From an uncultured Acidobacteriota bacterium (GTDB taxonomy: Bacteria; Acidobacteriota; Thermoanaerobaculia; UBA5066; Gp7-AA6): a DNA stretch of 64,000 nucleotides. Both the position numbers and the translations under genes were made by a program. Shown here piece by piece: positions 4,527-48,715 of the stretch (positions within the stretch are counted from its first letter, which is position 1; each line of letters opens with the position of its first letter). The notes beneath the pieces are model-generated. The model searched no databases. It was not told the origin of the DNA and was given only the letters and a program-made list of their open reading frames with translations. Location of the stretch: NCBI GenBank assembly GCA_963773905.1, contig CAVZDB010000005.1, forward strand, positions 326,257-390,256, written 5' to 3'.

Positions 4527-4542
4527 AGCAATGCCGCTGCCA
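4527..4542 (-). promoter_or_regulatory. Putative sigma-54 (-24/-12) promoter for the TonB receptor gene
   Basis: Minus strand TGGCAGCGGCATTGCT. GG-N10-GC spacing is correct. It lies 58 nt upstream of ATG 4470. Confidence 0.6.
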
Positions 4543-4745
4543 CTGCCAACTCACGGCCCATCTCGTCCGAAGTGGCGTGTTTGCAGACGCGTGCGCGGTC
4601 GACAATCTGCATTGAAGAGATCCCCGACGCACGGATCGTTGAAGCGAGCGCCCGCAAACTTGGATTGGTCTGACGAAGTGGTTACATCATTCTTGCCGCG
4701 ATTGGTCATTGCGAGAGAACGGCGCGCGCCGGAGACTCCGCGGCC

Positions 4746-5300
4746 ATGAGGCGCGCGGAATTCGCAACGGCGATGACGGACGAAGTCTCCGCCGCGCCGC
4801 TCTCGCTCCTTCCACCGGACCGCACGCGGCGCGCGATCGTCGGCGGCGGGCTCCTCTGCGGGATCCTCGACATCTCGGCGGCGTTCGTGCTCTCGTGGGC
4901 GATCGCGCGCGTCGGACCGATTCGCGTCCTCCAGGGAATCGCCGAGGCGCTGCTCGGCCCCGTGAGCGCGCGGGGAGGCCTCGCCTCCGCCGCGCTCGGG
5001 CTGCTGATGCACTTTTCCGTCGCGTTCTTCTGGGCCGCCGTGTTCGCGCTCCTCGCACGGCGATTTCCGGCGCTCCTGCGCTGGACCGTGCCGGCGGGGC
5101 TCCTCTACGGCGCCCTCGTCTGGATCGTCATGTACCGGGTCGTGATCCCGCTCGTTCCGGTCGTGAACGCGCTCTACCTGACGACCTTCGACCGCGCGAT
5201 TCCGAGGCTGCGACTCCGGCAGGTGCTGGTCCACTTGCTGTGCGTGGGACTTCCGATCGCGCTCGCCGCGCGGCGCGCCGCGAAGCCGCAAACGGGCTGA
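4746..5300 (+). CDS. Hypothetical polytopic membrane protein
   Basis: ORF of 184 aa with 4-5 hydrophobic helices (GLLCGILDISAAFVLSWAI, LLMHFSVAFFWAAVFALL, LLYGALVWIVMYRVVIPLV, VLVHLLCVGLPIALA). Third codon positions are GC-rich. Confidence 0.6.
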   Translation: MRRAEFATAMTDEVSAAPLSLLPPDRTRRAIVGGGLLCGILDISAAFVLSWAIARVGPIRVLQGIAEALLGPVSARGGLASAALGLLMHFSVAFFWAAVFALLARRFPALLRWTVPAGLLYGALVWIVMYRVVIPLVPVVNALYLTTFDRAIPRLRLRQVLVHLLCVGLPIALAARRAAKPQTG

Positions 5301-5330
5301 GGAGCGGCGAGCCGCGCGATTCGGCCGGCG

Positions 5331-6851
5331 TCAGTCCGACGCGCGCGCGACTCTCGGCGAGTCGAGATGCTCGCGGACGATCGGAGCCAACTGCGCGACG
5401 CCCTCCTCGATCTCCGGCAGGCTGACGCCGCCGTATCCGAGGACCAGGCCGCGGCGCCGCGGGCGCCCGAGGTAGAACTGAGAGAGCGGCATGGCCTTGA
5501 CGCCGATCGCGCCCGCACGAAGGCCGATCGCGAGGTCGTCGACGTGATCGGGAAGCGCCACCGTCAGGTACATGCCCGCCGCGTCGCCGAGCACCCGCAC
5601 GGCGGACCCGAGCTCCCGCTCCAGCCCCTCGACGAGCGTGGTGCGGCGTTCGCGGCACAGCGAACGCGTCCGCCGGATGTGCCGGTCGAAGTGGCCCTCG
5701 CGGATGAAGTCGGCGAGCACCGCCTGATGAAACGTGGGCGAGAACATGTCCATCCCCTTGCGCACCGCGATGAACGGCGCGAGGAGATCGCGAGGCAGGA
5801 CGACGTACCCGAGCCGGATGGCCGGGTACATCATCTTGGTGAACGTGCCGATGTAGATGACCCGCGAGTCGCGGTCGAGGCCCTGCAGCGCCGCGATCGG
5901 AAGGTTCCCGAACCGGTACTCGCTGTCGTAGTCGTCCTCGATGATCCAGGCTCCCTCGTTGCGCGCCCAGTCGAGCAGCATCAGCCGGCGCGGCGCGCTC
6001 ATCGTCATCCCCAGCGGGCACTGGTGCGACGGGGTGACGAACGCGGCCCGGGCCTCGGAGCAACGCGCCATTCCCGCCTCGACGTCGAGCCCCTCCTCAT
6101 CCACCGGAACGGGAACCAGCCGCGCCCGCGCCATCTTCAGCGCCTTCTGCGCGCCGAAGTAGCCCGGCTCCTCGATCCAGACCGGGCTGCCTTCGTCGAG
6201 CAGCACGCGCGCGGTCACGTCGACGGCCTGCTGGGATCCGCTGACGATCATGATCTGTTCGGCGTCGCACCGCACGCCGCGCGAGCTGCGGAGGTATTCC
6301 GCGAGGCTCTCGCGCAGGGACGGAAGGCCCATGGCGTGGCCGTAGTAGAGCAGCTCCGGATCGGTCCGTCGCGAGTGGCGCGCTGCGAGCCGAGCCCAGA
6401 CGCGGAACGGGAAGAGGTCGACCGGAGGCTGCCCGACGCCGAACGCGCCGCGGCCTCGGAACCAGGGCTGGTCGACGGGACGCGCGAGCGCCGCGGGAAT
6501 GCGCGCGATGATCCTCCGCCCCGGCCGGCCCATCGGGTTGCCGTCCGCGGCGCGGAGAGCGGCTCGCGTGAGCTCCTCCGGCAGGGTTCTCGCGACGAAG
6601 GTCCCGGAGCCCACGCGGCTCTCGAAGTAGCCCTCCGCCAGCAGCTGCTCGAACGCATTGAGGACGGGGATGCGCGAGATGCGGAGCTCCGCCGCGATGG
6701 TCCGTGTCGAGGGCAGCCGCTGCCCGGCGCGCAGGCGCCGCTCGACGATCGCGTCGCGATAGCCCTCGTAGAGCTGCCGGTACAGCGGCGTGCGCGAGCT
6801 CGGATCGACCGAGGCGACCGGAAGCACTCCCGGAGGGACGCTCTTCTTCAT
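5331..6851 (-). CDS. MocR/PdxR-type regulator (GntR wHTH fused to a PLP-dependent aminotransferase fold)
   Basis: ORF of 506 aa. The N-terminus PLYRQLYEGYRDAIVERRLRAGQRLPSTRTIAAELRISRIPVLNAFEQLLAEGYFESRVGSGTFV is a GntR HTH. The remainder is aminotransferase class I/II-like (YYGHAMGLPSLRESLAEYL, SGSQQAVD, TFTKMMYPAIRLGYVV). Confidence 0.9.
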   Translation of the reverse strand: MKKSVPPGVLPVASVDPSSRTPLYRQLYEGYRDAIVERRLRAGQRLPSTRTIAAELRISRIPVLNAFEQLLAEGYFESRVGSGTFVARTLPEELTRAALRAADGNPMGRPGRRIIARIPAALARPVDQPWFRGRGAFGVGQPPVDLFPFRVWARLAARHSRRTDPELLYYGHAMGLPSLRESLAEYLRSSRGVRCDAEQIMIVSGSQQAVDVTARVLLDEGSPVWIEEPGYFGAQKALKMARARLVPVPVDEEGLDVEAGMARCSEARAAFVTPSHQCPLGMTMSAPRRLMLLDWARNEGAWIIEDDYDSEYRFGNLPIAALQGLDRDSRVIYIGTFTKMMYPAIRLGYVVLPRDLLAPFIAVRKGMDMFSPTFHQAVLADFIREGHFDRHIRRTRSLCRERRTTLVEGLERELGSAVRVLGDAAGMYLTVALPDHVDDLAIGLRAGAIGVKAMPLSQFYLGRPRRRGLVLGYGGVSLPEIEEGVAQLAPIVREHLDSPRVARASD

Positions 6852-7031
6852 CGCTCAACGATACTGGATCGCGGCGGAATCCAGTGAGGAAAGTGGTCTG
6901 ATCACATTCAACTTTCTGCATCGCGTTGAGAACCGCTTTCACAATGGGATTCGCCAGCAAATACAAAAATGCGTTTGTCCGATCCATCGTGTCGTTCTTA
7001 ATGGTCATAGAAAACAATCCGACATTGGATA

Positions 7032-7868: not shown

Positions 7869-7933
7869 AGCCCGGGCTTTCCGACCCCGGGCGGAACGGG
7901 GGCATCCGCCTCGGCTAACATCCGCGCCAGGCC

Positions 7934-9550
7934 ATGGACGCTCCCCTCGACCCTTCGGGTCGTGATTCTCGGCTCCGGCTCGCGATGGCGGGGGTCCTCC
8001 TGGCGGGCGTGGCCGTGCGCCTCTGGGAGTACTTCGGCAACGCCTCGCTCTGGGTGGATGAGCTGGCCCTCTCCGAGAGCATCCTCCATCGATCGATGTC
8101 CGACCTGCTCGGCAGGCAGCTCGCGATGGGCCAGTCCGCCCCTCCCGGCTTCCTGGTCGCGGTCAAGGTCTCGACGATGCTCTTTGGCACCTCCGAGCTC
8201 GCACTCCGGGTCCCTTCGATCCTCTTCACCCTCGGGGCCCTTCCCCTCTTCGCGGCCGTCGCGAGGCGCTATCTCTCGGGATGGGCGGCGGTCTTCGCGA
8301 CGGCGCTCTTCGCCTTCGGGTCGCCGTTCGTCCACTACGGAGCGGAGCTCAAGCAATACGCGGGCGACGTGGCCGTCACGCTGCTGTTCCTGCTCGTCGC
8401 GTTCGACCTCAGTGTGGAGGCGCCCACGAAGAAGGCCTTCCTGCGCGCCGCGACAGCGGGAGCCCTCGGCGTCTGGTTTTCGATGCCCGCCGCAATGGTT
8501 CTGGCCGGCCTCGGCGTGGCGCTGCTCCTGCAGGCGCTGCTCCTTCCTCCGCGCAGGCCCAGCCGCGCGCTCCTCGCGACCATCGCGGTGTGGACGGTGG
8601 CCGCGGCGGCTTCCAGCCTCTGGAACATCACCCGTGCGGATCCGCAGACCCGATCCTTCCTCTATGGGTACTGGGTCGACGCCTTCCCGCCCTTCCCGCT
8701 GAGGCGGCGCCGGGATCTCCTCTGGCCGTTCAATCAGATCGTCCTGTTCTGGAAGTGGATGATGGGGTATCCGCGGCCCGGGATCTTCGCCGGACTCACG
8801 CTCGCCGGCTTCGTCGGGCTCTGGCGGAGACGGCGGGCCTCCGCACTCCTCCTGGCGGGACCTCTCGTCGTCACCGTCGCCGCCTCCGCGGCTCACTTCT
8901 ATCCTTTGCGAGGGCGCCTGACGCTCTTCCTCGGACCCTGCCTCCTCCTGCTCGCCGCGGAAGGAGTCCGCTGGATCGCTCGCGGCCTGGAGCACGTCCA
9001 CGTCCCGAAGCCGTTGGCCGCGGCCCTTTTCGCCCTGCCGCCCCTTCTCGCGTTCGTGGACAACCACCCGGTCGGCCGGCGGCAGGAGAACCGCCTGCTC
9101 TTCGAGTACGTGCAGCGAAGGCGGCGGCCCGGCGATGCGATCTACATCCCCTACGACACGATCCGGGCGCTTCTCTACTACGGGCCGCGCACCGGGCTGG
9201 ATCCGGCCTCGGTCTCGCCGGGAGCGTGCCATCGCGGCGATCTGTCCGCCTACCTCCGCGAGATCGATCGCTACCGCGGCCGGCCGCGCGTGTGGGTGAT
9301 CTTCGCGCAGACCGTGCCGGCGACGATGGAGCAGCCGACGATGCGAGGCTACCTTGGGACCATCGGACGCCGGCGCGAGGGGCTCACGGTTCCCACCGTA
9401 GAGTCCGCGGCTTTCGACATGCGCGCGGAGCTCTACGACCTGAGCGATCCCGCCCGGCTCGCCGCGAGCACGGCCGACACCTTTCCGCTTCCCCTGGTCG
9501 ACGCGGAAACCGTTCGGCGGCTGTCCTGCTGGCCGGAGCCGCGCTCCTGA
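7934..9550 (+). CDS. GT39/ArnT-like membrane glycosyltransferase family protein
   Basis: ORF of 538 aa. It has about 9 N-terminal TM helices and an early VDELALS motif that resembles the PMT/ArnT DE motif, followed by a soluble C-terminal domain. Confidence 0.65.
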   Translation: MDAPLDPSGRDSRLRLAMAGVLLAGVAVRLWEYFGNASLWVDELALSESILHRSMSDLLGRQLAMGQSAPPGFLVAVKVSTMLFGTSELALRVPSILFTLGALPLFAAVARRYLSGWAAVFATALFAFGSPFVHYGAELKQYAGDVAVTLLFLLVAFDLSVEAPTKKAFLRAATAGALGVWFSMPAAMVLAGLGVALLLQALLLPPRRPSRALLATIAVWTVAAAASSLWNITRADPQTRSFLYGYWVDAFPPFPLRRRRDLLWPFNQIVLFWKWMMGYPRPGIFAGLTLAGFVGLWRRRRASALLLAGPLVVTVAASAAHFYPLRGRLTLFLGPCLLLLAAEGVRWIARGLEHVHVPKPLAAALFALPPLLAFVDNHPVGRRQENRLLFEYVQRRRRPGDAIYIPYDTIRALLYYGPRTGLDPASVSPGACHRGDLSAYLREIDRYRGRPRVWVIFAQTVPATMEQPTMRGYLGTIGRRREGLTVPTVESAAFDMRAELYDLSDPARLAASTADTFPLPLVDAETVRRLSCWPEPRS

Positions 9551-9575: not shown

Positions 9576-9950
9576 TCAGGCCGCGGGCGCCGGCCTCCCG
9601 CAGAAGCGGCCCAGGCAGTCGCGCAGCTTCTCGAAGTTGACGGGCTTGCACAGGAAGTCCGCGACCCCGGGGGCGTCGCGGATGAAGGAGAGCCCGGAGA
9701 GCAGGACGACGGGAGTCGCATACGACCGCCGCGCGCGTTCCGCGAGGAACTGCCAGCCGTCCATCTCGGGCATCATCAGGTCGAGCAGGATCAGCCGCGG
9801 CGCCTCCATCGTCTCGAGGACTTCCAGCGCCCGCCGTCCGTTCTCCACCCCGAGGGCGGCGTAGCCCTCGTCGTGGAGAAACTCGACGAGGCCCTCCCGC
9901 ACGGCGGCGTCGTCGTCGACGACGAGCACGGTCGCCCGCGCGCTATTCAT
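9576..9950 (-). CDS. Single-domain response regulator (CheY-like receiver)
   Basis: ORF of 124 aa: TVLVVDDDAAVREGL...LILLDLMMPEMDG...LCKP. Its start overlaps the kinase stop by 8 nt. Confidence 0.85.
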   Translation of the reverse strand: MNSARATVLVVDDDAAVREGLVEFLHDEGYAALGVENGRRALEVLETMEAPRLILLDLMMPEMDGWQFLAERARRSYATPVVLLSGLSFIRDAPGVADFLCKPVNFEKLRDCLGRFCGRPAPAA

Positions 9951-11439
9951 TGGGACCTCCCTCGGGAAGCCGCCTCGTCGGCGCCGGAGCCGGCTCCGAC
10001 AGACCGGCGACCTCGAGCAGGAGCCGCTCGCCCGACGTTTCCTCGTCCACGCCCCGACGGCGCGCGAGCTCGAGCTGGGCCATGACCTGCCGCGCGAGGA
10101 CCCGCAGGCCGTCCTTCTGCTCCTCCGTGAGCTCGCGCGGCCTCCGGTCCAGGACGCACAGCGTGCCGATCGCGAAGCCGTCGGGGGTCACGAGCGGCGC
10201 TCCAGCATAGAAGCGGACGTGCGGATCGTCGGTGACGAGCGGGTTCTCCGCGAACCGCGCGTCGGCCGCGGCGTCGGGGACCTCCATCACGTCGTTGCCC
10301 AGAATGGCGTGCGCGCAGAAGGCGACGTCCCGCGGCGTCTCCGCGACGCTCGTGCCGACCCGCGCGTGGAACGCCTGCCGCTCCCGCTCGACCGACGAGA
10401 TCAGCGCGAGCGGCGTTCCGCAGAACCGCGAGGCGAGGCGCGCGAGATCGTCGAGCTCCCGCGCCGAGGCCGCTCCCGCGGCGGAGTACCGATGGACCGC
10501 GGCCAGCCGCTGCGTCTCCGAGTCGGGCACCGCCGCCGCCACGGTTCCGACGAGCGGGGGCGTGGCGTCGCCGTGGTGCGCCGCCGCGAGGGCCACGCGC
10601 AGGTCGCGCATCGACGCGAAGCGCTCGGAGGGGTCCTTGTGCATCGCGCGCCCGATCAGCGCGGCCATCGGCTCCGGAATGTCGGGCACCCGCTTCGCGA
10701 TCGGCTCCGGTTCCTCCTTCACGATCATCTCGAGCAGCCGGAAGAGGTTCTCGTTCTCGAACGGCTTGCGGTAGCTGAAGAGCTCGTAGGCCAGCACGCC
10801 GAAAGAGAAGATGTCGGTGCGCACGTCGACGGAGTCGCCGCAGACCTGCTCCGGAGACATGTAGGCCGACGAGCCCACCGCGACGCCGGTGCCCGTGAGG
10901 ACGCTCGGCGCGCCGATGACCTTCGCCACGCCGAAGTCCATGATCTTGACCGTCTTGTTTTCGAGGATGCGGACGTTCGCGGGCTTGATGTCGCGGTGCA
11001 TCACGCCGGAACGATGTGCGTACTCGAGCCCGAGCGCGATCCCGAGCAGGATCTTGATCCGCGCGAGCACGTCGAGGGGCTCGCGACGGGCGATCAGCTG
11101 GGAAAGATCCTCGCCGCTCAGAAACTCCTGGACGATGTAGGGAGTCTCGCCCTCCATGCCGAATTCGTAGACGGTCGTGATGTTGGGGTGCTGCAGCCGG
11201 CCCGCGAGCTCCGCCTCCTGGAAGAAACGCGCCTGGAACTCCTTGCCGAGGAGGCAGCTCTTGATGGCGACGGGCCGCTTGATGTCCGGATCCCAGGCCT
11301 TGAAGACCGTGCCGAATCCGCCCGAGCCGATCCGCTCGAGAATCCGGTACTTGCCGATCGAGCCCGAGCCCTCGGGAGGCGGACCCGGCGGGACCGCGGG
11401 ACTCCCCTTGTCTCCCTCTTTGCGGCGAAGCAGGTCCAT
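9943..11439 (-). CDS. Ser/Thr protein kinase with a C-terminal GAF domain
   Basis: ORF 9943..11451(-). ATG 11439 is preferred because a GAGG lies 7 nt upstream. Hanks motifs are present: GSGGFGTVFKA, VAIK, HRDIKPAN, DFG, SPE. The C-terminus (...DVAFCAHAIL...FYAGAPLVTPDGFAIGTLCVLD) is GAF-like. Confidence 0.9.
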   Translation of the reverse strand: MDLLRRKEGDKGSPAVPPGPPPEGSGSIGKYRILERIGSGGFGTVFKAWDPDIKRPVAIKSCLLGKEFQARFFQEAELAGRLQHPNITTVYEFGMEGETPYIVQEFLSGEDLSQLIARREPLDVLARIKILLGIALGLEYAHRSGVMHRDIKPANVRILENKTVKIMDFGVAKVIGAPSVLTGTGVAVGSSAYMSPEQVCGDSVDVRTDIFSFGVLAYELFSYRKPFENENLFRLLEMIVKEEPEPIAKRVPDIPEPMAALIGRAMHKDPSERFASMRDLRVALAAAHHGDATPPLVGTVAAAVPDSETQRLAAVHRYSAAGAASARELDDLARLASRFCGTPLALISSVERERQAFHARVGTSVAETPRDVAFCAHAILGNDVMEVPDAAADARFAENPLVTDDPHVRFYAGAPLVTPDGFAIGTLCVLDRRPRELTEEQKDGLRVLARQVMAQLELARRRGVDEETSGERLLLEVAGLSEPAPAPTRRLPEGGPNE

Positions 11440-11479
11440 CGCGAGCCTCAAGGGAACATGTCGCCCGGAGTTTCGCCGT

Positions 11480-12140: not shown

Positions 12141-12356
12141 TCAATGCGGGACCGGCTCGGCCTGGGGGTCGCGCCGCGGCTCGCGCACCGGCTCCGGCGC
12201 GTCGCGCCGGCGCGGGTCGATCGCCGGCACCTCGCGGTCCGGATCGTCGATCACCGGGGCGCCGTCCGGCAGCGGGTTTGGACTCGGGTCCTCCACCGCC
12301 GGCCGCCGTCCGACCGCGGGATCCTGCGGTATGAAGAACTCGCTAGGCCAGATCAT
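12141..12356 (-). CDS. Possible small Pro/Asp/Arg-rich protein
   Basis: ORF of 71 aa with GC-rich third positions. ATG 12356 overlaps the PNPOx stop by 14 nt. No motif recognised. Confidence 0.3.
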   Translation of the reverse strand: MIWPSEFFIPQDPAVGRRPAVEDPSPNPLPDGAPVIDDPDREVPAIDPRRRDAPEPVREPRRDPQAEPVPH

Positions 12357-12988: not shown

Positions 12989-13004
12989 TGCACGGGACAT
13001 GCCA
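12989..13004 (-). promoter_or_regulatory. Putative sigma-54 promoter for the PNPOx gene
   Basis: Minus strand TGGCATGTCCCGTGCA with correct GG-N10-GC spacing. Confidence 0.55.
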
Positions 13005-13224
13005 CGGCTTCGCCCCGCGACTGGAGCGCCACGCGCCCGCGATTCGCACCCTCCTCAACCTCGACCGATTCTTCGGCACTCGCGGACACGGGACCGCCGC
13101 CCCCGAAGGGGCGGGTCCGATTTGGCGGGGAGTCTTGGTGGGAATCGGTTCGAGTGTTCCAAAGAACCTTGCCCGTTTTTAAAGCAAAAAGAGTGCCAGC
13201 GGCCGGCGCCGCGAGCAGGTGAGT

Positions 13225-13771: not shown

Positions 13772-13787
13772 TGGCACCCCCGTTGCA
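13772..13787 (+). promoter_or_regulatory. Putative sigma-54 promoter for the DUF2231 gene (leaderless geometry)
   Basis: TGGCACCCCCGTTGCA is a perfect consensus match. ATG 13800 follows exactly 12 nt after TTGCA. Confidence 0.7.
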
Positions 13788-14803: not shown

Positions 14804-14819
14804 TGGCACGCCGCATGCT
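14804..14819 (+). promoter_or_regulatory. Putative sigma-54 promoter for the BON lipoprotein gene
   Basis: TGGCACGCCGCATGCT with correct spacing, about 100 nt before the start codon. Confidence 0.6.
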
Positions 14820-14918
14820 GAACCGATCGGCGGGCACGGACGCCGCGGATTCGCCCGGCGGCTCGGGGCTCATCGGGGCGGCGGACCTGTAGGTCCGATT
14901 TGGACAATGGAGGCCACC

Positions 14919-15544: not shown

Positions 15545-15560
15545 TGCAAGAGGGGTGCCG
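15545..15560 (-). promoter_or_regulatory. Putative sigma-54 promoter for the DUF1328 gene
   Basis: Minus strand CGGCACCCCTCTTGCA, 32 nt before ATG 15514. Confidence 0.65.
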
Positions 15561-15580: not shown

Positions 15581-15596
15581 GGGCACGAATCTCGCT
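15581..15596 (+). promoter_or_regulatory. Putative sigma-54 promoter for the superoxide dismutase gene
   Basis: GGGCACGAATCTCGCT with correct spacing, 25 nt before ATG 15620. Confidence 0.5.
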
Positions 15597-18611: not shown

Positions 18612-18627
18612 AGGAACGGTTATTGCA
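18612..18627 (+). promoter_or_regulatory. Putative sigma-54-like promoter (GGAAC variant) for the hemerythrin gene
   Basis: AGGAACGGTTATTGCA with correct GG-N10-GC spacing, 28 nt before ATG 18654. Confidence 0.45.
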
Positions 18628-20045: not shown

Positions 20046-20061
20046 TGCAAGATCCGTTCCC
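20046..20061 (-). promoter_or_regulatory. Putative sigma-54-like promoter (GGAAC variant) for the Thr-rich lipoprotein gene
   Basis: Minus strand GGGAACGGATCTTGCA with correct spacing, 54 nt before ATG 19993. Confidence 0.45.
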
Positions 20062-27461: not shown

Positions 27462-27477
27462 TGCAGAAAGCGTGCCG
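27462..27477 (-). promoter_or_regulatory. Putative sigma-54 promoter for the hydrophilin gene
   Basis: Minus strand CGGCACGCTTTCTGCA with correct spacing, 52 nt before ATG 27410. Confidence 0.6.
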
Positions 27478-27498: not shown

Positions 27499-27514
27499 TG
27501 GCAGGCCGATTGCT
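27499..27514 (+). promoter_or_regulatory. Putative sigma-54 promoter for the metallothionein-ku operon
   Basis: TGGCAGGCCGATTGCT with correct spacing, 26 nt before ATG 27539. Confidence 0.6.
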
Positions 27515-28722: not shown

Positions 28723-28795
28723 CGCCTAACCCGACGGATGGCGGCGGACCGGGACGCAACTCGACTCAATCCCTTCGAAAAAGCAGGATCCATGC

Positions 28796-28811
28796 CGGCA
28801 CTCTCTTTGCA
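28796..28811 (+). promoter_or_regulatory. Putative sigma-54 promoter for the LPKTAS-tailed surface protein gene
   Basis: CGGCACTCTCTTTGCA with correct spacing, 53 nt before ATG 28863. Confidence 0.65.
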
Positions 28812-30199: not shown

Positions 30200-30215
30200 A
30201 GCGAAACTTGTGCCA
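30200..30215 (-). promoter_or_regulatory. Putative sigma-54 promoter for the lmo0937-like gene
   Basis: Minus strand TGGCACAAGTTTCGCT with correct spacing, 57 nt before ATG 30144. Confidence 0.6.
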
Positions 30216-33006: not shown

Positions 33007-33022
33007 TTCAAGAAGCGTGCCG
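33007..33022 (-). promoter_or_regulatory. Weak sigma-54-like promoter candidate for the repeat-protein gene
   Basis: Minus strand CGGCACGCTTCTTGAA. The -24 element and spacing are good, but the -12 element reads GA instead of GC. It resembles the hydrophilin promoter. Confidence 0.35.
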
Positions 33023-34034: not shown

Positions 34035-34050
34035 TGGAACGCGCATTGCA
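34035..34050 (+). promoter_or_regulatory. Putative sigma-54-like promoter (GGAAC variant) for the oxidoreductase gene
   Basis: TGGAACGCGCATTGCA with correct spacing, 47 nt before ATG 34096. Confidence 0.5.
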
Positions 34051-39043: not shown

Positions 39044-39059
39044 TGCAAGCATCGTGCCG
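39044..39059 (-). promoter_or_regulatory. Putative sigma-54 promoter for the BON/low-complexity gene
   Basis: Minus strand CGGCACGATGCTTGCA with correct spacing, 57 nt before ATG 38987. Confidence 0.65.
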
Positions 39060-39086: not shown

Positions 39087-39473
39087 CTAGCGACCCTCGA
39101 AGAAGCGGGTGAACAGTTTCCCGAGCAGATGCTGACCGCGCGTGGACTGCTCCGCGCCCGTCGTCGTCTCCGCGCTTCGGTTCCCCGGCACGCTCGCCGA
39201 CGCCTTCGCCGACTCCGCGCGCGCGGACTGCGGCTCCGCGCCGGTTGGCCGGCTCACGACGCGTGTGCTGCGGCCGGTCGTCGGAGCGTTCGCATCGGGC
39301 CAGCACGGGATGCCGCGGGTTCCCGGGGTCAGATCCGAGGGATATGCGTTCGGGCAGAACAGCGCCGAGATCTTGCACAACTCCGACATCTGATCCATGC
39401 AGGGATTCGGCGCGGCGGTGGCGCTGTTCGCGGCCGTCGTCGCCTGAATCGAAAAAACCAAAGCCAGCAACAT
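39087..39473 (-). CDS. Hypothetical secreted protein with four Cys
   Basis: ORF of 128 aa (AGGAGGAGGG RBS). Signal-like N-terminus MLLALVFSIQATTAA; GC-rich third positions. Confidence 0.55.
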   Translation of the reverse strand: MLLALVFSIQATTAANSATAAPNPCMDQMSELCKISALFCPNAYPSDLTPGTRGIPCWPDANAPTTGRSTRVVSRPTGAEPQSARAESAKASASVPGNRSAETTTGAEQSTRGQHLLGKLFTRFFEGR

Positions 39474-39542: not shown

Positions 39543-39558
39543 AGCAAGAGGCAGGCCA
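39543..39558 (-). promoter_or_regulatory. Putative sigma-54 promoter for the secreted Cys-protein gene
   Basis: Minus strand TGGCCTGCCTCTTGCT with correct spacing, 71 nt before ATG 39473. Confidence 0.5.
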
Positions 39559-41133: not shown

Positions 41134-41164
41134 CCCCCACGGGCACGCAAGGAGCGCGCCAACG

Positions 41165-42330: not shown

Positions 42331-43983
42331 TTACCGCCGCTGCAGGCGGGTGATCTCTTCGTCGAAGCCGGGCAGAATCGCGCGGAAGAACGCGTTCTCG
42401 ATCAGGCGTCCGATGACTTGCCACGTGCTCGAGCTGGGGTTCTCCACCGGCCCGGAGATGTCGGCCTCCGTCGCGACCTCTTTGCGCCCGTTCTCGAGCA
42501 GACTGGCCACTCCGCCGACGAGCTTTTCGTACAGCTTCCGAAAGAGACTCTTCTCGGCGTCCTGTCTCTGGTCGTAAACCTTCATGTCCTGGAAGAGGGG
42601 CTTGACGTAGCCGTCGATCCGGCCCCGCGCCACCTTCAGCTCGGTGTAAAACGAAAATTTCCCCGCGACGACGTCGAACTTCCCGTAGGAGCGGAAGAGG
42701 TCGTTCATCTTCTCCATCGGCGTGTTCTCGATCTGTCCCTTGAGGTCGAAGTCCGGCCCGTTCGCGTCGGCTCGGAAGGTCGCGGCGGCGGACGCTTCGC
42801 CGGCGCCCATGAACTTCCCCTTCAGCGAAACCTTCGCCGGGCCGGCCGCGAAGCCGTTGGAGTAGTTCTCGACGCGAAGGGTCACGGGCGCGAGGAAGAC
42901 GCGGTAGCCGGGCGTCTTCGCCTTGTTGACGAAGCCGACGTCGCAGTTCTCGAGCGCGAGGTGATCGACGCGCAGGACGGTGTCCGGATCGCGCGTTACC
43001 TCGCGCGCCGCCTGGCCGACCTGCTGCCGCCGGACCCGCTCCACCGCGGCGGTCGGCGCGGTGTGGACGTAATCGAGCCGCATGTCGCGGACCGTCAGAT
43101 CCTGCAAGTGGGCGAACCGCACCCGGGGGCCGTACTCGACCTCCCCCGCGAGCTGGAGGACGCCGTGGCGAATGTCGAGGTTCGACCGCGCGATGATCGG
43201 ATGGAAGGAGTCGAGCGGAATGCCGCTGAGATTCAGGAGGACGTGGATCCCCGTGAACGGCTCCGCCAGGAAGTCCGCGTGTCCATCGACCGTCGCGTGA
43301 CCGGTCTCGAACACGACCGCCTCGGCGTGGATCGGCGAGGGGTAGGACCGGTCCTTCGAGTGAATGTTGCGGATGTTGTTGGCGGTCAGCTGGAGGTGCG
43401 TGAGGTGAAGCGGCCGCTTCGGGTCCTCGTCGACGTAGGTCACCTCCCCATCCCGCACCCGAAACAGGTTGATCTTGAGCGGATAGATCTGTTCGACCGC
43501 CCGCTGCCAGCCTTTCTGTTTCACGGGAGTCTCATCCGAGGCCTCCTGGCGGAGCTGGGCGAGGTTGACGTACGCCACCGGCCGATCCAGGAGGAAGTCC
43601 GCGACCAGCCGCAGCGCGAGAAGCTCCCGCCACTGCACGGTGGCCTGAAGCCGTGGGAAGACCGCGATCGGCGGCTCGGGGTTGGCGTTCTGGCGCAGCG
43701 TGAGATTCACGAGCGTCAGCCCGAAGTCGAACGGCCGCAGGCGCAGCTTGCCGATCCGGACGCTGTAGCCCTCGAGGCTGGCGTTCATGCGCCTCTCCAT
43801 CGAACGGCGCATCGGCTCCGCGGCGATCGGAGGGAGAACAACCAGCAGCAGGAGAATGCCCGCGAGAATTCCCGCGGTCCAGACGGCGGCGCGGCGCCAT
43901 CCGCGAGGCCGCTGCCAATGCCGGGGTCGCGGCTTCGGGTGGCGGGCCGGCGAGGCGGCGCGAGGTCTCGGATTCGCAGACAC
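42331..43983 (-). CDS. DUF748-domain (AsmA-like clan) protein
   Basis: ORF of 550 aa. GTG 43983 is the only possible start before the TM helix (AAVWTAGILAGILLLLVVLPP). The repeated beta-rich architecture and C-terminal ...GRIDGYVKPLFQDMKVYD... are typical of DUF748. Confidence 0.75.
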   Translation of the reverse strand: MSANPRPRAASPARHPKPRPRHWQRPRGWRRAAVWTAGILAGILLLLVVLPPIAAEPMRRSMERRMNASLEGYSVRIGKLRLRPFDFGLTLVNLTLRQNANPEPPIAVFPRLQATVQWRELLALRLVADFLLDRPVAYVNLAQLRQEASDETPVKQKGWQRAVEQIYPLKINLFRVRDGEVTYVDEDPKRPLHLTHLQLTANNIRNIHSKDRSYPSPIHAEAVVFETGHATVDGHADFLAEPFTGIHVLLNLSGIPLDSFHPIIARSNLDIRHGVLQLAGEVEYGPRVRFAHLQDLTVRDMRLDYVHTAPTAAVERVRRQQVGQAAREVTRDPDTVLRVDHLALENCDVGFVNKAKTPGYRVFLAPVTLRVENYSNGFAAGPAKVSLKGKFMGAGEASAAATFRADANGPDFDLKGQIENTPMEKMNDLFRSYGKFDVVAGKFSFYTELKVARGRIDGYVKPLFQDMKVYDQRQDAEKSLFRKLYEKLVGGVASLLENGRKEVATEADISGPVENPSSSTWQVIGRLIENAFFRAILPGFDEEITRLQRR

Positions 43984-43995: not shown

Positions 43996-44011
43996 CGCAA
44001 TCGACGTGCCA
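43996..44011 (-). promoter_or_regulatory. Putative sigma-54 promoter for the DUF748 operon (leaderless geometry)
   Basis: Minus strand TGGCACGTCGATTGCG. GTG 43983 follows exactly 12 nt after TTGCG. Confidence 0.7.
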
Positions 44012-44037: not shown

Positions 44038-44433
44038 CTAGTGTCTCGCGGAGGAGACGCTCCGGGGCCGTGTGGCAGCCGATTCGCGGGGGAGGAGGCG
44101 TTCGATCGAACGCTCGAGCTCGCGAAACTCGAACGGTTTCACCAGGAAATCGTCGGCGCCGAGCAGCCGCGTGCGTGCGAGCCGGTCCGCGTGGGCCGAC
44201 ATGACGATGACCCCGCCGGCGAATCCGCCCTCGCGCAGGCGGACCAGGGCGCTCTCGCCGTCGACGAGCGGCATCAGGAGGTCGAGAATCACGAGGTCGA
44301 CGGGGCCCTCGCCCAACCGCTCGAGCGCCTCCTCGCCATTGCGCGCGGTCACGACATCGTAGCGGCGCGACAGCAGGGTCTCCATCCCCTCGAGGATTCC
44401 GAGATCGTCGTCGGCGATCAGGATGCGTCTCAT
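44038..44433 (-). CDS. Single-domain response regulator
   Basis: This is the last 131 codons of ORF 44038..45642(-), starting at ATG 44433. Motifs: MRRILIADDDLGILEGM...LVILDLLMPLVDG...LVKP. There is an ATGA-type overlap with the kinase stop. Confidence 0.85.
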   Translation of the reverse strand: MRRILIADDDLGILEGMETLLSRRYDVVTARNGEEALERLGEGPVDLVILDLLMPLVDGESALVRLREGGFAGGVIVMSAHADRLARTRLLGADDFLVKPFEFRELERSIERLLPRESAATRPRSVSSARH

Positions 44434-45506
44434 GCGGGCTCCAGTACGCTCCGCGGCAGCGTGATCGTGATCTGCGTCCCGCGATCCGGCTCGCTCGCGA
44501 CGGCGAGGTCGCCGCCGTGCCGCTCGAAGACGTCTCGCGCCGCCGCGAGCCCGAGGCCGAGGCCCGGGAAGTGGCGCCGGGGAACGTTGCTCGCCCGAAA
44601 GAACCGACGGCCGACCGACTCCAGATCCTCCCTCGGAATCCCGACGCCCTGATCTCGGATCGTGACGCGGTGCGGCCCTTCGTCGGCTCGAAGCTCGACC
44701 TCGACGTCCCCCCCGCGGGGCGAGAACTTGAGCGCGTTGTCGAGCAGCCCGTGGAAGGCCTGTTCGAGACTGCGGCTCTCTCCGTCGACGTCGGCCTGCT
44801 GGGGGCCGCGAAACGTCAGACGATGACGGACACGGCCCGGAGACTCGCGCAGCTCGTCGCAACGCAGGGCGACCAGGCGGCGCAGCAGTCCCGCGAGGTT
44901 CAGCCGCACCTTGTGGAGCGAGAGGCCGTGCCGATCTTCCGTCCGCAGCAGGTCGCTGATCAATCGACCCAGACGGTCGACCTGGACGCCGAGGCGGTCG
45001 AACATCTCGGGAGTGCAGACCTCTCCGGCGGCCGCCGCGCGGCGCATCACTTCCGCGTGCATCTTCACGGCCTGGAGCGGAGTGCGCAGCTCGTGCGCCA
45101 TCATCCGCAGCGCGGCCTCGCGGGACTCCTCCCCCCGTCGGCGGTCGTGAATGTCCAGACACGCGCCGACGAAGCCGTGGACCGCATCCGCCTCGTGGAT
45201 GGGAACGCCGCGCTCCAGAACCCAGCGATAGAGGCCGTCGTGGCGCCGCAGCCGGTACTCCACCTCGAAGGGCGCGAGGCCGCGCAGCGGATCGAGGAAC
45301 AGTTCCGCCCGGCGCCGCAGATCGTCGGGATGGACTCCCTGCATCCAGCCCTCGCCGAGCTCCTCCTCGCGGCTCCGCCCGGTGAATCGGAGCCACGTGT
45401 CGTTGAAGTAGTCGCGGTGGGCCTTCGCGCCGGAGCGCCAGATCAGCAGCGGAGCGTGGTCGAGAAGCGCGGCGGAGTCGGTGGTCGGGAGCCATTCCGG
45501 CAGCAT
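44430..45506 (-). CDS. PAS-domain sensor histidine kinase
   Basis: ORF 44430..45722(-), starting at ATG 45506. PAS: LLIWRSGAKAHRDYFNDTWLRFTGRS...GWMQGVHPDD...YRLRRHDGLYRWV. H-box MAHELRTPL, N-box LLDNALKFSP, then DQGVGI and GLGLGLAA. Confidence 0.85.
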   Translation of the reverse strand: MLPEWLPTTDSAALLDHAPLLIWRSGAKAHRDYFNDTWLRFTGRSREEELGEGWMQGVHPDDLRRRAELFLDPLRGLAPFEVEYRLRRHDGLYRWVLERGVPIHEADAVHGFVGACLDIHDRRRGEESREAALRMMAHELRTPLQAVKMHAEVMRRAAAAGEVCTPEMFDRLGVQVDRLGRLISDLLRTEDRHGLSLHKVRLNLAGLLRRLVALRCDELRESPGRVRHRLTFRGPQQADVDGESRSLEQAFHGLLDNALKFSPRGGDVEVELRADEGPHRVTIRDQGVGIPREDLESVGRRFFRASNVPRRHFPGLGLGLAAARDVFERHGGDLAVASEPDRGTQITITLPRSVLEPA

Positions 45507-45508
45507 CG

Positions 45509-46057
45509 TCAGGCTCCCCCGGCGCGCTCTCTCGGCGGGCCCGCCCCGCCAGAGACTCCCGACGCGCTGGCCGTACCGGCGAAGCGCCTCCGCCGCAGAA
45601 CCCGCAGGCTCGCCCGCAGGCGCTCGCGGGCCCAGGAGGCAAACAGACGCTCGAACAGCCGCAGGCCCACCCAGACCGTCGGATCGACGTACGCCCCGAG
45701 GGCTCTGCGCTCGCGGAGCCAACCGGCCGCGCCGGCGGCCGGAATCTCGTGCACGGCGAGTCCCGGAACCGATGAGGGCCGAGTCGCGCGGCGCGCGAGG
45801 AGCGGCGCCATCAGGATGCTCGAATGTCCGCCGGCCTCGTTCGGGATTCCGTAACGCGACATCGTGACGAGCTCACGCGCCTCGTACCCGAGCAGCGCGA
45901 GGAGCCGATTGACGGCAACGAAGTCGCGCCCGTCGCCGACGCCGGTGACGGTCACCGCGGGAAGCACGATCGTCTGGTCGGCGGTCAGGGTGCGCAGGAG
46001 GGCAATCTCTCCATCGCACGTCAGCCCCACGACGTGCAGCGTGTCTCGGAAATCCAA
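45509..46057 (-). CDS. Hypothetical protein (faint Nudix-fold resemblance, no Nudix box)
   Basis: This is the C-terminal 182 codons of ORF 45509..48598(-). The TTG 46057 start has GGAGGTGG upstream and a sigma-54 promoter 28 nt before it. The stop abuts the kinase start. Confidence 0.45.
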   Translation of the reverse strand: MDFRDTLHVVGLTCDGEIALLRTLTADQTIVLPAVTVTGVGDGRDFVAVNRLLALLGYEARELVTMSRYGIPNEAGGHSSILMAPLLARRATRPSSVPGLAVHEIPAAGAAGWLRERRALGAYVDPTVWVGLRLFERLFASWARERLRASLRVLRRRRFAGTASASGVSGGAGPPRERAGGA

Positions 46058-46083: not shown

Positions 46084-46099
46084 AGCAAACGGCTTGCCA
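46084..46099 (-). promoter_or_regulatory. Putative sigma-54 promoter for the hypothetical-kinase-regulator operon
   Basis: Minus strand TGGCAAGCCGTTTGCT with correct spacing. Confidence 0.6.
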
Positions 46100-46128: not shown

Positions 46129-47325
46129 TCAGCGGTTCTCGTGGAACGCGACGCGTTCCGAGGGGTGCTCCTCGCCCTGGAGGACCGCGTCGATCGCCCG
46201 GTCCTCGCCCGACGCGGCCGCCTCGGCGAGCTCCGCATGGTCGGCGACGACCTCGTTGCTCAGGTAATCGGAGAGCCAGATCTTCTCGATGATCGGATAG
46301 GCCGCGAAGAGCGGCAGGATGAGCACCGCTCCCACGACGCCGTAGAGGCTGCCTCCCACGATGAGCGCGAGGAGCACGACGAGCGGTGACAGACGGAGCC
46401 TGCGTCCGTACACCCGCGGAACGATGACGTAGTTCTCGAGCCCGTGGTACAGCAGGTAGAGGACCACGACGGCCGCCGCCGCGACCGGCGAAACCGTCAG
46501 CGCGAATAATGCCGCCGGGATCGTCGAGATGAAGACGCCCAGGATCGGCAGCACGTCGCAGATCGCCGCGAGCACGGCGAGCGGCAACGCGGAAGGCACG
46601 TGCAGGACCGTGAGCACCACGAACGCGAAACCTCCGTAGAGCAGCGACGTGAGCAGCTGGCCCTGCACGTACGCCATGACGACTTCGGAGACGGCCGGAA
46701 CGGTCTCGGCCATCTTCTGCCGGTGGCGGCGCGGCACGTACGCGAGGAGCCACGCGTAGGTGCGTTTCCCGTCGAGCAGCAGGTACAGCGAGAGGACCAG
46801 GACGAGGACCGCCGCGAGCGAGGCCTCGAGGACGAGCTGGCCCCACGCCAGCGGACGCTTGAGGGAGTGCGCGACCTCGGGCGAGGACGGCAGGTCGAAG
46901 ATTTGGGCCATCAGCTTCGCGATCAGCGGGTGATCGGGATTGAGGCGGGCCTGCGCGCTCCGCCGATACGCGCCGAGGTTCGCGGCGAGCTCCATCGTCT
47001 GGGTGGCGAGCGGCGGCAGGACCAGGAACACGAATAGCGCGAGGACGGCGAGCATCCCGCACGCGACGAGGCCGACCGACAGCGAACGCGAGACGCCCCG
47101 CCGCTCCAGGCGATCGACGATCGGCCATAGCGTCACCGCCAGCACGAGGGCGACGAACAGCACGAGGAGACTCGGGACGAGCCGCAGCAGCGCCCAGACG
47201 CAAGCCGCCGCGATCAGCACCTTGAGGATCGTCGAGACCGGCAGCTGCAGGCGGACCTCCGCCGGGTCCGGCCCGACAGCGGGCTCGCGGCCGTCGCGAG
47301 GCGCGGAAAGCTTGACGAACTCCAC
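46129..47325 (-). CDS. AI-2E family transporter (PerM-like); start uncertain (GTG 47325 proposed)
   Basis: ORF 46129..47445(-). It has about 8 TM helices and the motifs ...YVQGQLLTSLLYGGFAFVVL...ICDVLPILGVFIS...LENYVIVPRVYG.... ATG 47445 would lie inside the divergent gene. Confidence 0.8.
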   Translation of the reverse strand: MEFVKLSAPRDGREPAVGPDPAEVRLQLPVSTILKVLIAAACVWALLRLVPSLLVLFVALVLAVTLWPIVDRLERRGVSRSLSVGLVACGMLAVLALFVFLVLPPLATQTMELAANLGAYRRSAQARLNPDHPLIAKLMAQIFDLPSSPEVAHSLKRPLAWGQLVLEASLAAVLVLVLSLYLLLDGKRTYAWLLAYVPRRHRQKMAETVPAVSEVVMAYVQGQLLTSLLYGGFAFVVLTVLHVPSALPLAVLAAICDVLPILGVFISTIPAALFALTVSPVAAAAVVVLYLLYHGLENYVIVPRVYGRRLRLSPLVVLLALIVGGSLYGVVGAVLILPLFAAYPIIEKIWLSDYLSNEVVADHAELAEAAASGEDRAIDAVLQGEEHPSERVAFHENR

Positions 47326-47337: not shown

Positions 47338-47353
47338 CGCAAGAAGTGTGCCG
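47338..47353 (-). promoter_or_regulatory. Putative sigma-54 promoter for the AI-2E transporter gene (leaderless geometry)
   Basis: Minus strand CGGCACACTTCTTGCG. GTG 47325 follows exactly 12 nt after TTGCG. Confidence 0.6.
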
Positions 47354-47376
47354 CGCGCACGCGCGCGGGTCCAATG

Positions 47377-47392
47377 TGGCACGCGGGTTGCG
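47377..47392 (+). promoter_or_regulatory. Putative sigma-54 promoter for the DUF6600-like gene
   Basis: TGGCACGCGGGTTGCG with correct spacing, 26 nt before ATG 47417. Confidence 0.65.
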
Positions 47393-47416
47393 TTCCCTGC
47401 ACTGTGGGAGTTGAAA

Positions 47417-48685
47417 ATGAGAAAGCACACGGGAATTTTGTTCACCGTTCTCGCCGCCGCACTGGTGTGGACCGCGAGCGCGGCCGCCGCCCCGGTGGAG
47501 GTCAGCGTGTCCGTCTTCCATGATCAGCTCGCGCCTCACGGACGGTGGGTCGCGGCGGGCTCCTACGGCAACTGCTGGGTGCCCTCCGGAGTCGCCCGGG
47601 GGTGGGAGCCGTACGTCGACGGCCAGTGGGTCTACTCCGATTACGGATGGACCTGGGTCTCCGACGATCCCTGGGGCGACATCCCCTACCACTACGGCAC
47701 CTGGGCGTACGCCGATCCCTACGGCTGGGTCTGGGTCCCCGGAACCGTCTGGGCGCCCGCGTGGGTGACGTGGGCGTACACCGACGACTACGTCGGCTGG
47801 GCGCCCGTGCCGCCGAGCTTCGCCCTCTCCGCCACCGGCTACTTCGGCTCGCCGGTCGTCGTGACGTCGACGCACTACGTCTTCGTCCCGACGCGGCAAT
47901 TCGTCGGCGTGCGCGTCGCGACCGTGAGGGTCCCGGCGCAGCAGAGCGTCACGATCCTGCCGCACGCCGTGAAGACCACGCGCTTCGACGTCTCCCAGGG
48001 CGTCGTCCGCATCGCGGGTCCGCCGGAGAGCCGGGTCGCGCGCGTCGTCGGCCATCCCATCCAGCACGTCGCCGCGAATAGCCTCCGGGCCCGGCCCACC
48101 ACCCTGGCGGCAGGCGGGGTGACCGCGACGAAGAGCGTTCGTGTCGTCGCGCCGGAAACGGAGCGCGCCAAGATCGCCGCGGCGCCGGCGAGGAACGAGC
48201 CGGCCAGGAACGCGAAACACCAGGCCGAGACGAGGACCGCGCAGAAGGCCGAGAAGAATCCGAAGAAGCCGGCGCGTCCGGCGGCCGAGTCGAGTGCGCG
48301 CAACGAGAGCGCGACGGCGCACGCGCACGGGACCGAGCGGGCCGAGCCGAAGCCCAAGGCGCGTCCCGAGACCGAGACTCGCCAGGCGAACGTCGCGCAC
48401 ACGCAACAGGCTCCGAAGCCGAAGGCCAAGCCGAAGCCGGAACATCGGGCCGAGCCCGAAAAGCCACAGGCGACGGCACAGTCCGCGCACGAGGCCCAGC
48501 CGCGCGAGTCGGCCCAGGCGGAGCAGCGGGCGAAGGCCGAGAAGCCGCAGCCCGAGGCGCATCCGCAGAGTGAGACCCGCCAGGCGAACGCCGAGCATTC
48601 GCAGCCGGCTCCCAAGCCGAAGGCCCGGCCGCAGCAGAAGCCGCAGCCGCCGAAGGAGAAGGAGAAGCCCCCGAGTCAGGACTGA
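47417..48685 (+). CDS. Secreted Trp/Tyr/Gly-repeat (DUF6600-like) protein with a Lys/Pro/Ala/Glu-rich repetitive tail
   Basis: In the frame of ORF 46940..48685, starting at ATG 47417, with a signal peptide. WVAAGSYGNCWVPSGVARGWEPYVDGQWVYSDYGWTWVSDDPWGDIPYHYGTWAYADPYGWVWVPGTVWAPAWVTW. The tail carries two ETRQAN..H.Q.APKPKA.P copies. Confidence 0.8.
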   Translation: MRKHTGILFTVLAAALVWTASAAAAPVEVSVSVFHDQLAPHGRWVAAGSYGNCWVPSGVARGWEPYVDGQWVYSDYGWTWVSDDPWGDIPYHYGTWAYADPYGWVWVPGTVWAPAWVTWAYTDDYVGWAPVPPSFALSATGYFGSPVVVTSTHYVFVPTRQFVGVRVATVRVPAQQSVTILPHAVKTTRFDVSQGVVRIAGPPESRVARVVGHPIQHVAANSLRARPTTLAAGGVTATKSVRVVAPETERAKIAAAPARNEPARNAKHQAETRTAQKAEKNPKKPARPAAESSARNESATAHAHGTERAEPKPKARPETETRQANVAHTQQAPKPKAKPKPEHRAEPEKPQATAQSAHEAQPRESAQAEQRAKAEKPQPEAHPQSETRQANAEHSQPAPKPKARPQQKPQPPKEKEKPPSQD

Positions 48686-48699
48686 CGTCCTTCGCGATT

Positions 48700-48715
48700 C
48701 GGGAAGGCGTTCGCA
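48700..48715 (+). promoter_or_regulatory. Weak sigma-54-like promoter candidate for pyk
   Basis: CGGGAAGGCGTTCGCA. The spacing is correct but both elements are degenerate. Confidence 0.3.

Follow-up and report, generated by a model that had tools for sequence, protein, structure and literature searches.

The DNA described here is a 64-kb stretch (the window) from an uncultured bacterium of the phylum Acidobacteriota, class Thermoanaerobaculia (GenBank assembly GCA_963773905.1, contig CAVZDB010000005.1, positions 326,257 to 390,256 of the forward strand). The whole window has a guanine plus cytosine (G+C) content of 69.3%, long open reading frames (ORFs) occur on every strand, and a gene map drawn from codon usage holds 64 genes and leaves 6,782 bp (10.6% of the window) as intergenic DNA. 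Between 12.9 and 47.4 kb lies an island of ~35 kb in which roughly 22 of about 30 transcription units are preceded by 16-nt sequences resembling the -24/-12 promoters read by sigma-54 RNA polymerase. An initial annotation of this DNA had listed 19 such 16-mers, and each of them was recovered at the exact coordinate and on the strand claimed for it. The literature consensus TGGCAC-N5-TTGCW was scanned on both strands, GG and GC being obligatory and 11 consensus positions being scored. Three sites could be added to the earlier list: a perfect one at 13183(-), one at 41146(-) and an orphan at 28782-28797(-). The sites are the following:

4527..4542 (-): TGGCAGCGGCATTGCT, in front of a TonB-dependent receptor gene (1462-4470), 56 nt from its ATG; the sole site outside the island
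12989..13004 (-): TGGCATGTCCCGTGCA, upstream of a PNPOx-like gene of the general-stress-protein-26 type (12343-12903)
13183..13198 (-): perfect site TGGCACTCTTTTTGCT, putative promoter of the candidate small RNA
13772..13787 (+): perfect site, 12 nt before the ATG of a DUF2231 gene (13800-14297), which is followed by a low-affinity iron permease gene (14357-14794)
14804..14819 (+): site upstream of a BON-domain lipoprotein gene (14907-15233)
15545..15560 (-): site upstream of a DUF1328 gene (15332-15514), back to back with the superoxide dismutase promoter at 20 bp
15581..15596 (+): GGGCACGAATCTCGCT, 23 nt before the ATG of an Fe/Mn superoxide dismutase (SOD) gene (15620-16252)
18612..18627 (+): GGAAC variant upstream of a hemerythrin-domain gene (ATG at 18654)
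20046..20061 (-): GGAAC variant upstream of a Thr-rich lipoprotein gene
27462..27477 (-): site upstream of a hydrophilin-like gene (27186-27410), with trehalose-phosphate phosphatase and synthase genes after it on the same strand
27499..27514 (+): TGGCAGGCCGATTGCT, preceding a Cys-rich metallothionein-like ORF (27539-27694), with the Ku gene (27720-28553) after it; back to back with 27462(-) at 21 bp
28782..28797 (-): orphan site CGGCATGGATCCTGCT, before a ~50-residue N-terminal remnant of a GT4 glycosyltransferase gene that is intact in relatives
28796..28811 (+): site upstream of the gene of a secreted low-complexity protein (28863-29732)
30200..30215 (-): TGGCACAAGTTTCGCT, upstream of a DUF5670 membrane peptide gene (ATG at 30144), directly past the stop codon of the activator gene
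33007..33022 (-): variant CGGCACGCTTCTTGAA, whose -12 element has GA for GC, in front of the gene of a secreted repeat protein (32293-32964)
34035..34050 (+): GGAAC variant upstream of a GFO/IDH/MocA oxidoreductase gene (34096-35253)
39044..39059 (-): site upstream of the gene of a low-complexity BON-domain protein (37932-38987)
39543..39558 (-): TGGCCTGCCTCTTGCT, upstream of the gene of a secreted Cys-containing protein (39087-39473)
41146..41161 (-): TGGCGCGCTCCTTGCG, 12 nt before the GTG of the gene of a 513-residue membrane-anchored protein (39592-41133)
43996..44011 (-): site upstream of a DUF748 gene (42331-43983) that opens a three-gene operon, with 12 nt to its GTG
46084..46099 (-): site upstream of an operon (44038-46057) of hypothetical, PAS histidine kinase and receiver genes
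47338..47353 (-): site 12 nt before the GTG of an AI-2E family transporter gene (46129-47325; label from the initial annotation)
47377..47392 (+): site upstream of a DUF6600 gene (ATG at 47417), back to back with 47338(-) at 23 bp

The island holds 20 of the 21 sites of the consensus scan, together with the variant at 33007 and the orphan site. Most of the gene labels first given by inspection were confirmed by Pfam, which supports the PNPOx-like protein, DUF2231 and the low-affinity iron permease, two BON proteins, DUF1328, hemerythrin, Ku, DUF5670, the GFO/IDH/MocA oxidoreductase, DUF748 and DUF6600; the identity of the SOD is given by Sod_Fe_N and Sod_Fe_C domains in orthologs of 73-81% identity. 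The island also contains one GH15 gene and two genes each for trehalose-phosphate synthase and trehalose-phosphate phosphatase. Gene sets of this kind are controlled in other phyla by sigma-B, sigma-S and EcfG. The functions that we propose for the genes under the sites, as judged from their families, would be oxidative defence (SOD, hemerythrin), osmotic and desiccation protection (BON, hydrophilin and trehalose genes) and DNA-break repair (Ku), with small membrane peptides (DUF1328, DUF5670), envelope proteins (DUF748, AI-2E, DUF6600) and one small RNA completing the putative regulon.

Abundance, placement and conservation of the sites

The sites are far more frequent than expected. With at most one mismatch to TGGCAC-N5-TTGCW, 13 matches were observed in the whole window against a mean of 0.49 in 100 dinucleotide-preserving shuffles, the maximum of which was 3. 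At a minimum of 10 of the 11 consensus positions, GG and GC being fixed, 13 sites are intergenic and none falls in the 57 kb of coding DNA, so that the comparison of site density between intergenic and coding DNA speaks for the initial annotation. Lowering the threshold to 9 of 11 gives 23 sites, 21 of them intergenic and 2 coding. Shuffling the intergenic DNA alone yields expectations of 0.06 and 0.72 at these two thresholds, against 13 and 20 observed, which bears out the earlier rough judgement that far fewer than one hit per window would arise by chance (0.06-0.7 in the shuffles). Base composition is rejected as the explanation because intergenic DNA has a G+C content of 68.5%, nearly equal to that of coding DNA. 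The two or three coding matches (21449, 8517, 59656) are probably due to chance.

All intergenic sites face a gene, and the 10 sites located between genes of the same strand all point the right way, as had been claimed. GG and GC, 10 nt apart within YTGGCACG-N4-TTGCW, are invariant in the 21 sites of the consensus scan. A matrix built from these 21 sites shows a strong T at position 1, CA at positions 4-5, TT preceding GC and A/T after it, along with a G at position 7 (TGGCACG) and T-richness downstream of the -12 element; it equals the published sigma-54 consensus position by position. The one conserved exception to the near-invariant GC is the GA of the site at 33007. Several promoter sub-types can be distinguished (TGGCAC, CGGCAC, TGGCAG, GGAAC and TTGAA), each conserved gene by gene.

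Across the sites, the gap to the start codon is never shorter than 12 nt. Downstream of most sites, at 23-99 nt, come a ribosome-binding site of the GGAGG type and an ATG. Four sites (13772+, 41146-, 43996-, 47338-) lie exactly 12 nt from an ATG or GTG that lacks a Shine-Dalgarno sequence; with a sigma-54 start ~11 nt past the motif, the four mRNAs would be leaderless or nearly so, as is probably the case for the DUF2231 mRNA. The DUF748 ortholog of another genome retains a gap of 12-13 nt. Three divergent pairs stand back to back at 20-23 bp (15545/15581, 27462/27499 and 47338/47377).

The best relatives of the SOD protein, at 70-80% identity, are found in metagenome-assembled genomes of the acidobacterial class Thermoanaerobaculia. 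Eight syntenic loci were collected, five through SOD (L004-L007, L010) and three through homologs of the activator (L081-L083), and 21 metagenome contigs were added by a scan for the core of the small RNA. In front of orthologous genes the GG/GC core is retained at a distance characteristic of each gene, and the 5-nt spacer and the flanks drift. The best-sampled genes are as follows:

DUF2231: site in 13 of 13 orthologs, 14-25 nt to the start codon
BON: site in 7 of 7 orthologs, 60-69 nt to the start codon
DUF1328: site in 10 of 12 orthologs, 24-34 nt to the start codon in 9 of the 10
DUF5670: site in 5 of 5 orthologs, 48-55 nt to the start codon
SOD: site in ~12 of the 14 closest orthologs, 23-34 nt to the start codon

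The metallothionein-like ORF with Ku likewise keeps its site at the same distance in relatives. The hydrophilin, second BON, Cys-containing and low-complexity proteins each have a single ortholog available, and the site is kept in it. Where a gene of the window lacks a site (activator, small partner, alpha/beta hydrolase and otsA), its orthologs lack one too (0 of 10). In L081-L083, for which independent gene calls were used, 25-26 of 27 strong matches are intergenic and correctly oriented. The density of strong matches reaches 32.7 per 100 kb in the eight syntenic loci and 4.2 in other Acidobacteriota, against a background of 1.24 in 55 actinobacterial SOD loci of similar G+C content. RpoN, the sigma-54 protein, is almost wholly absent from Actinobacteria and was present in all 3 acidobacterial genomes surveyed (PMC3372290).

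The claim that sigma-54 drives most of the non-housekeeping transcription units stands for the island at 12.9-47.4 kb and fails for the rest of the window. The dcw cluster is free of intergenic sites, as stated earlier. The four weak candidates of the initial annotation fared unequally: 33007(-) is credible, carries TTGAA at -12 and is kept in three relatives; 13736(-) and 48700(+) are marginal, at 4-5 bits; and no acceptable match exists at 492 on either strand. The GA-type -12 element of 33007 is shared by four genomes (the window, L010 at ~4290(-), L082 and L083 at 8607(+)), in each of which the secreted repeat protein gene follows it.

Some neighbouring features of the sites deserve mention. 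The GT4 gene, of which the window has a remnant (28554-28797(-)), is intact in L004; in L083 it is driven by an equivalent promoter and followed by a debranching-enzyme-like gene. The orphan site and the remnant together look like a deletion scar. The 51-residue Cys/His-rich ORF at 27539-27694(+) (MHCEHTGCHCSEATVELEGKKYCSEKCAES...CGCGHPDCAAL), between a site and Ku, belongs to no Pfam family and is kept in L004, L006, L081, L082 and L083; it may be metallothionein-like or a zinc-binding partner of Ku. L004 at 9538(+) and L006 at 9119(+) have an extra strong site, TGGCAGG...GTTGCT, between the iron permease and BON genes, which is absent from the window; the ~100 nt downstream contain no obvious ORF, and this site may drive a second small transcript. 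Beside the SOD gene, the LigD primase-polymerase gene (16900-17901(-)) is broken into at least five frame-shifted pieces, with three tandem VARKRVVTR copies directly upstream; the Ku gene is intact, as is the 300-residue LigD of L082. The broken gene is either a decaying pseudogene or a local assembly error. Outside the island, a Ser/Thr protein kinase-GAF fusion gene followed by a single-domain receiver gene (9576-11451(-)) has no sigma-54 site.

A candidate small RNA downstream of a probable sigma-54 promoter

The perfect site at 13183(-) is not followed by an ORF. Downstream of it lies an 83-nt element, conserved across every syntenic genome, that we describe as a candidate small RNA. Its parts are a 5' hairpin (GGUUC/GAACC), a C-rich linker and a 3' GC hairpin that has no evident U tail. 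The linker reads CCCACCAAG..CCCCGCC in the window and, in the majority of homologs, CCCUCCAAC...CCCGCC. This C-rich single-stranded stretch looks complementary to ribosome-binding sites of the GGAGG type. Across the whole window, no Rfam 15 family was matched at gathering thresholds. The element and its homologs are located as follows:

Window, 13090-13172 (-): candidate 83-nt small RNA
L004, ~8100-8190 (-): homolog
L005, ~2920-3005 (+): homolog
L006, ~7885-7975 (-): homolog
L081, ~17515-17600 (+): homolog
L082, ~14395-14480 (+): homolog
21 metagenome loci (e.g. L188, L099, L171): homologs

In the metagenome search the 5' hairpin pattern was matched ~120 times. The full downstream signature accompanies it in 21 cases, and in all 21 a sigma-54 site scoring 14-22.6 bits ends 14-15 nt ahead of GGUUC. 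No site above 10 bits goes with the ~95 chance hits of the pattern, many of which fall within flagellar genes. Altogether 27 homologs (25 distinct sequences) were recovered with their promoter, and the site stands 14-15 nt before the 5' hairpin in every one. This fixed register constitutes the best evidence here, of an indirect kind, for the position of a transcription start. The small RNA would represent an unclassified family with 25 or more distinct members, each preceded by this type of promoter.

The activator encoded in the island

A sigma-54 activator gene and two further putative signalling genes are found in the island:

30247-31578 (-): NtrC-family sigma-54 activator gene (Pfam Response_reg, Sigma54_activat, AAA_lid_14)
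31575-31820 (-): gene of an 81-residue helical-hairpin protein, upstream of the activator gene, its frame overlapping the activator start
35315-37853 (+): CHASE3-PAS-HisKA-HATPase-receiver hybrid kinase gene, a conserved member of the island

The activator matches Sigma54_activat with E=5.5e-70 and possesses Walker motifs and a GSFTGA loop, the counterpart of the GAFTGA loop of the NtrC class. Its best solved-structure match is Aquifex NtrC1 (1ny5), over aligned residues 30-411, and LuxO (5ep0) is also among the best structural matches. No HTH_8 DNA-binding domain is detected by Pfam at E<=0.01: the chain stops 22 residues past the AAA lid, in a basic low-complexity tail. The same holds for its 120 best homologs (76-100% identity), none of which has a helix-turn-helix domain; they measure 386-551 residues, all but one of them 386-451, and those carrying a name all come from Thermoanaerobaculia. 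Judged by its predicted domains, the activator is of the CtcC/FlgR-like sub-type devoid of a DNA-binding domain. In the four relatives in which its position is visible (L006, L081-L083) the gene resides in the same island, with SOD, DUF1328, BON, DUF2231, Ku and LigD as neighbours, as well as DUF5670, the oxidoreductase, trehalose genes and the CHASE3-PAS hybrid kinase.

The 81-residue protein carries a histidine-kinase H-box, FFHDVATPLS, kept in 5 genomes, and has no ATPase domain; its predicted structure is a two-helix hairpin with a predicted local distance difference test (pLDDT) score of 89.5. We tentatively consider it a stand-alone phosphotransfer or phosphatase module. The operon that it forms with the activator has no sigma-54 site. 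The sequence GGATCTGTCATAGGATC occurs at ~31860-31880(-), ~45 nt before the start of this operon, and is kept in L083, L081 and L006; it is presumably a non-sigma-54 promoter or an operator of the regulator genes. The hybrid kinase gene, a candidate for the input kinase, is split in the window across two reading frames that overlap at 35952-36463, and its orthologs are single ORFs of 935 residues in L082 and 845 residues in L083.

Enhancers are usual partners of sigma-54 promoters and were searched for in two ways. Five-way alignments of orthologous promoters contain no conserved block upstream of -24, and the regions 5-200 nt upstream of 21 sites share no 6-8-mers or 4+4 dyads above shuffle level. 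No enhancer was thus found at the customary ~80-150 bp upstream, and known systems whose activator has no DNA-binding domain lack enhancers as well. Within the back-to-back pairs, 20-23 bp are left between the promoters.

Interpretation and comparison with known systems

The sites are real and not due to chance; they are placed correctly, are conserved and are very probably genuine sigma-54 (-24/-12) promoters, an identity proposed in the initial annotation and upheld by the consensus matrix, the intergenic placement, the orientation, the conservation in orthologs and the activator of the island. In the mechanism that we propose, sigma-54 would read the sites and its RNA polymerase would wait at the promoters as a closed complex. 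The island activator (30247-31578) would open these complexes from solution, a mode of action suggested because it has no DNA-binding domain, and would do so on every sigma-54 promoter instead of through gene-specific enhancers; membership in the regulon would then be set by promoter sequence alone. The activity of the activator would be controlled by phosphorylation passing from one or more hybrid histidine kinases of the island to the 81-residue hairpin protein and on to the activator, an input path that the gene neighbourhood makes likely, with stress as the presumed signal. Since no enhancer was found, the activator has no DNA-binding domain and its gene is always in the island, the mode of CtcC and FlgR would be the most economical explanation. 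We rate the chance that the island activator is the common switch of these promoters as slightly better than even. The reading as a whole, a sigma-54 stress regulon conserved across Thermoanaerobaculia and switched from solution by this activator, we regard as probable.

Several observations weigh against this reading. The genome may encode further activators, equipped with a DNA-binding domain, outside the window, and the enhancer search, with 21 sequences and five-way alignments, was limited in power. The HisKA match of the 81-residue protein (E=0.005, 17.2 bits) is below the Pfam cut-off of 26.9, and Foldseek with the hairpin model returned generic helical hairpins only, at E>0.6. No rpoN gene is present in the window, and a tblastn search of the 2.2 Mb of collected loci with E. 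coli RpoN gave no hit, a result that says nothing about the genome; the presence of rpoN is implied because the activator gene is intact. The stress role of the genes is taken from family names. GTG, a poor start codon for leaderless translation, opens three of the four putative leaderless genes. Finally, a single site occurs in the 29 kb of the window outside the island, so that to call the regulon global is an extrapolation.

In the textbook arrangement, several DNA-binding activators encoded elsewhere would serve these sigma-54 promoters through their own enhancers, and the island activator would be confined to a small number of adjacent genes such as that of DUF5670. In favour of this arrangement, ~96% of sigma-54 activators combine a DNA-binding with a signal-recognition domain (PMC3162934), and the sub-types conserved gene by gene (TGGCAC, CGGCAC, TGGCAG, GGAAC, TTGAA) could reflect different regulation. 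We nevertheless find it unlikely: nothing upstream of -24 is conserved between orthologs, the 21 upstream regions have no common motif, the back-to-back pairs leave enhancers no intergenic room, and the sole island-linked activator of five genomes (the window, L006, L081-L083) is devoid of a DNA-binding domain.

The two remaining explanations dispense with sigma-54 promoters and are effectively excluded. The motif might be the operator of a DNA-binding regulator, such as a response regulator recognizing a TGGCA/TTGCA direct repeat, beside promoters of the sigma-70 type. Its two halves do look like a direct repeat spaced by 11 bp, OmpR/PhoB-type regulators bind such repeats, and the three GGAAC sites are reminiscent of the -35 element of extracytoplasmic function (ECF) sigma factors. 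This proposal is nevertheless very improbable in view of the exact position-by-position match to the sigma-54 consensus with its invariant GG and GC, the lack of a common -10 element downstream, the four sites just 12 nt from a start codon, the fixed distance of 14-15 nt to the 5' hairpin of the small RNA and the co-located sigma-54 activator. A PhoB-like direct-repeat operator was rejected on this geometry (the 12-nt gaps and the fixed small-RNA distance), and an ECF sigma factor at the three GGAAC sites was rejected for want of a shared -10 element at 16-17 nt and for the presence of TTGCA at sigma-54 spacing. That the matches are a by-product of chance or base composition is scarcely credible: short degenerate motifs do arise by chance, and nothing else speaks for it. 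Against it stand an enrichment of 25-fold to more than 200-fold, an intergenic G+C content almost equal to that of coding DNA, actinobacterial controls at background level and sites conserved at orthologous positions. Chance origin was rejected on the shuffles and on ortholog conservation.

The promoter type and the type of activator without a DNA-binding domain are already known. What appears to be new is the combination of a gene set of the general-stress type, class-wide conservation, a small partner protein and a sigma-54-dependent small RNA. The main text of two cross-phylum surveys of sigma-54 regulons makes no mention of Acidobacteria (PMC3162934; PMC12316311), and our literature searches found no sigma-54 stress regulon or general-stress regulator described for Acidobacteria or Thermoanaerobaculia. 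The phylum is very abundant in soils and hard to culture, and its stress regulation is essentially undescribed. Sigma-54 is usually described as governing scattered, activator-specific operons; here it would act like a stress sigma factor for a whole protective gene set. More tentatively, and with a likelihood that we place somewhat below even, Thermoanaerobaculia might possess a class-wide general stress response run by sigma-54 and one phosphorelay-controlled activator without a DNA-binding domain, in place of an alternative factor of the sigma-70 family, to which the small RNA, through its anti-Shine-Dalgarno-like C-rich stretch, would add a post-transcriptional arm. If true, this would represent an independently evolved solution to the general stress response beside sigma-S, sigma-B and EcfG. 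The promoters are sharp enough for regulons to be predicted straight from metagenomes, and metatranscriptomes could serve as a readout of the stress state of these bacteria. The locus also yields a widely conserved activator without a DNA-binding domain and its small partner, a putative small-RNA family, and a probable natural case of very short or absent leaders at sigma-54 promoters.

Among known systems, the closest are Chlamydia trachomatis CtcB/CtcC and Helicobacter pylori FlgS/FlgR, in which the activator likewise combines a receiver with an AAA+ sigma-54-interaction domain; neither CtcC nor FlgR has a DNA-binding domain (PMC3162934; PMC7482065), and CtcC drives a sigma-54 regulon (PMC7482065). 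In both systems an entire set of -24/-12 promoters answers to one activator, and gene-specific enhancers are dispensed with (PMC7482065; PMC3162934). The differences concern the genes, which here are stress-protection genes in place of developmental, type III secretion or flagellar ones; the host, a free-living acidobacterium in which further activators are probably present; and the adjacent partner, an 81-residue kinase-like hairpin instead of a full sensor kinase. With canonical sigma-54 regulons (NtrC, PspF and ZraR among others; Myxococcus, Geobacter and Desulfovibrio) the system shares promoter architecture and the AAA+ core. In those regulons enhancers are located 80-150 bp upstream, whereas none was found here, and each activator serves one operon or a small regulon.

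In Vibrio, hybrid kinases signal through the small phosphotransfer protein LuxU to the sigma-54 activator LuxO, which switches on the Qrr small RNAs from -24/-12 promoters. The island resembles this logic, as far as a circuit drawn from gene neighbourhood can be compared with it. LuxO, unlike the activator described here, has a DNA-binding domain and binds upstream of the qrr genes; the small RNA of the island has no Rfam match and is therefore not a Qrr RNA; and the 81-residue protein appears DHp-like rather than Hpt-like.

In gene content, the putative regulon overlaps strongly with those of sigma-B in Bacillus, sigma-S in E. coli and EcfG in Alphaproteobacteria. BON/OsmY proteins, trehalose synthesis, SOD, PNPOx-like general stress protein 26, hydrophilins, DUF1328 and Ku are gene types common to these regulons. 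The difference lies in the regulatory principle: sigma-B, sigma-S and EcfG are sigma-70-family factors controlled by partner switching or proteolysis, whereas the genes of the island would be read from sigma-54 promoters opened by an ATP-driven activator.

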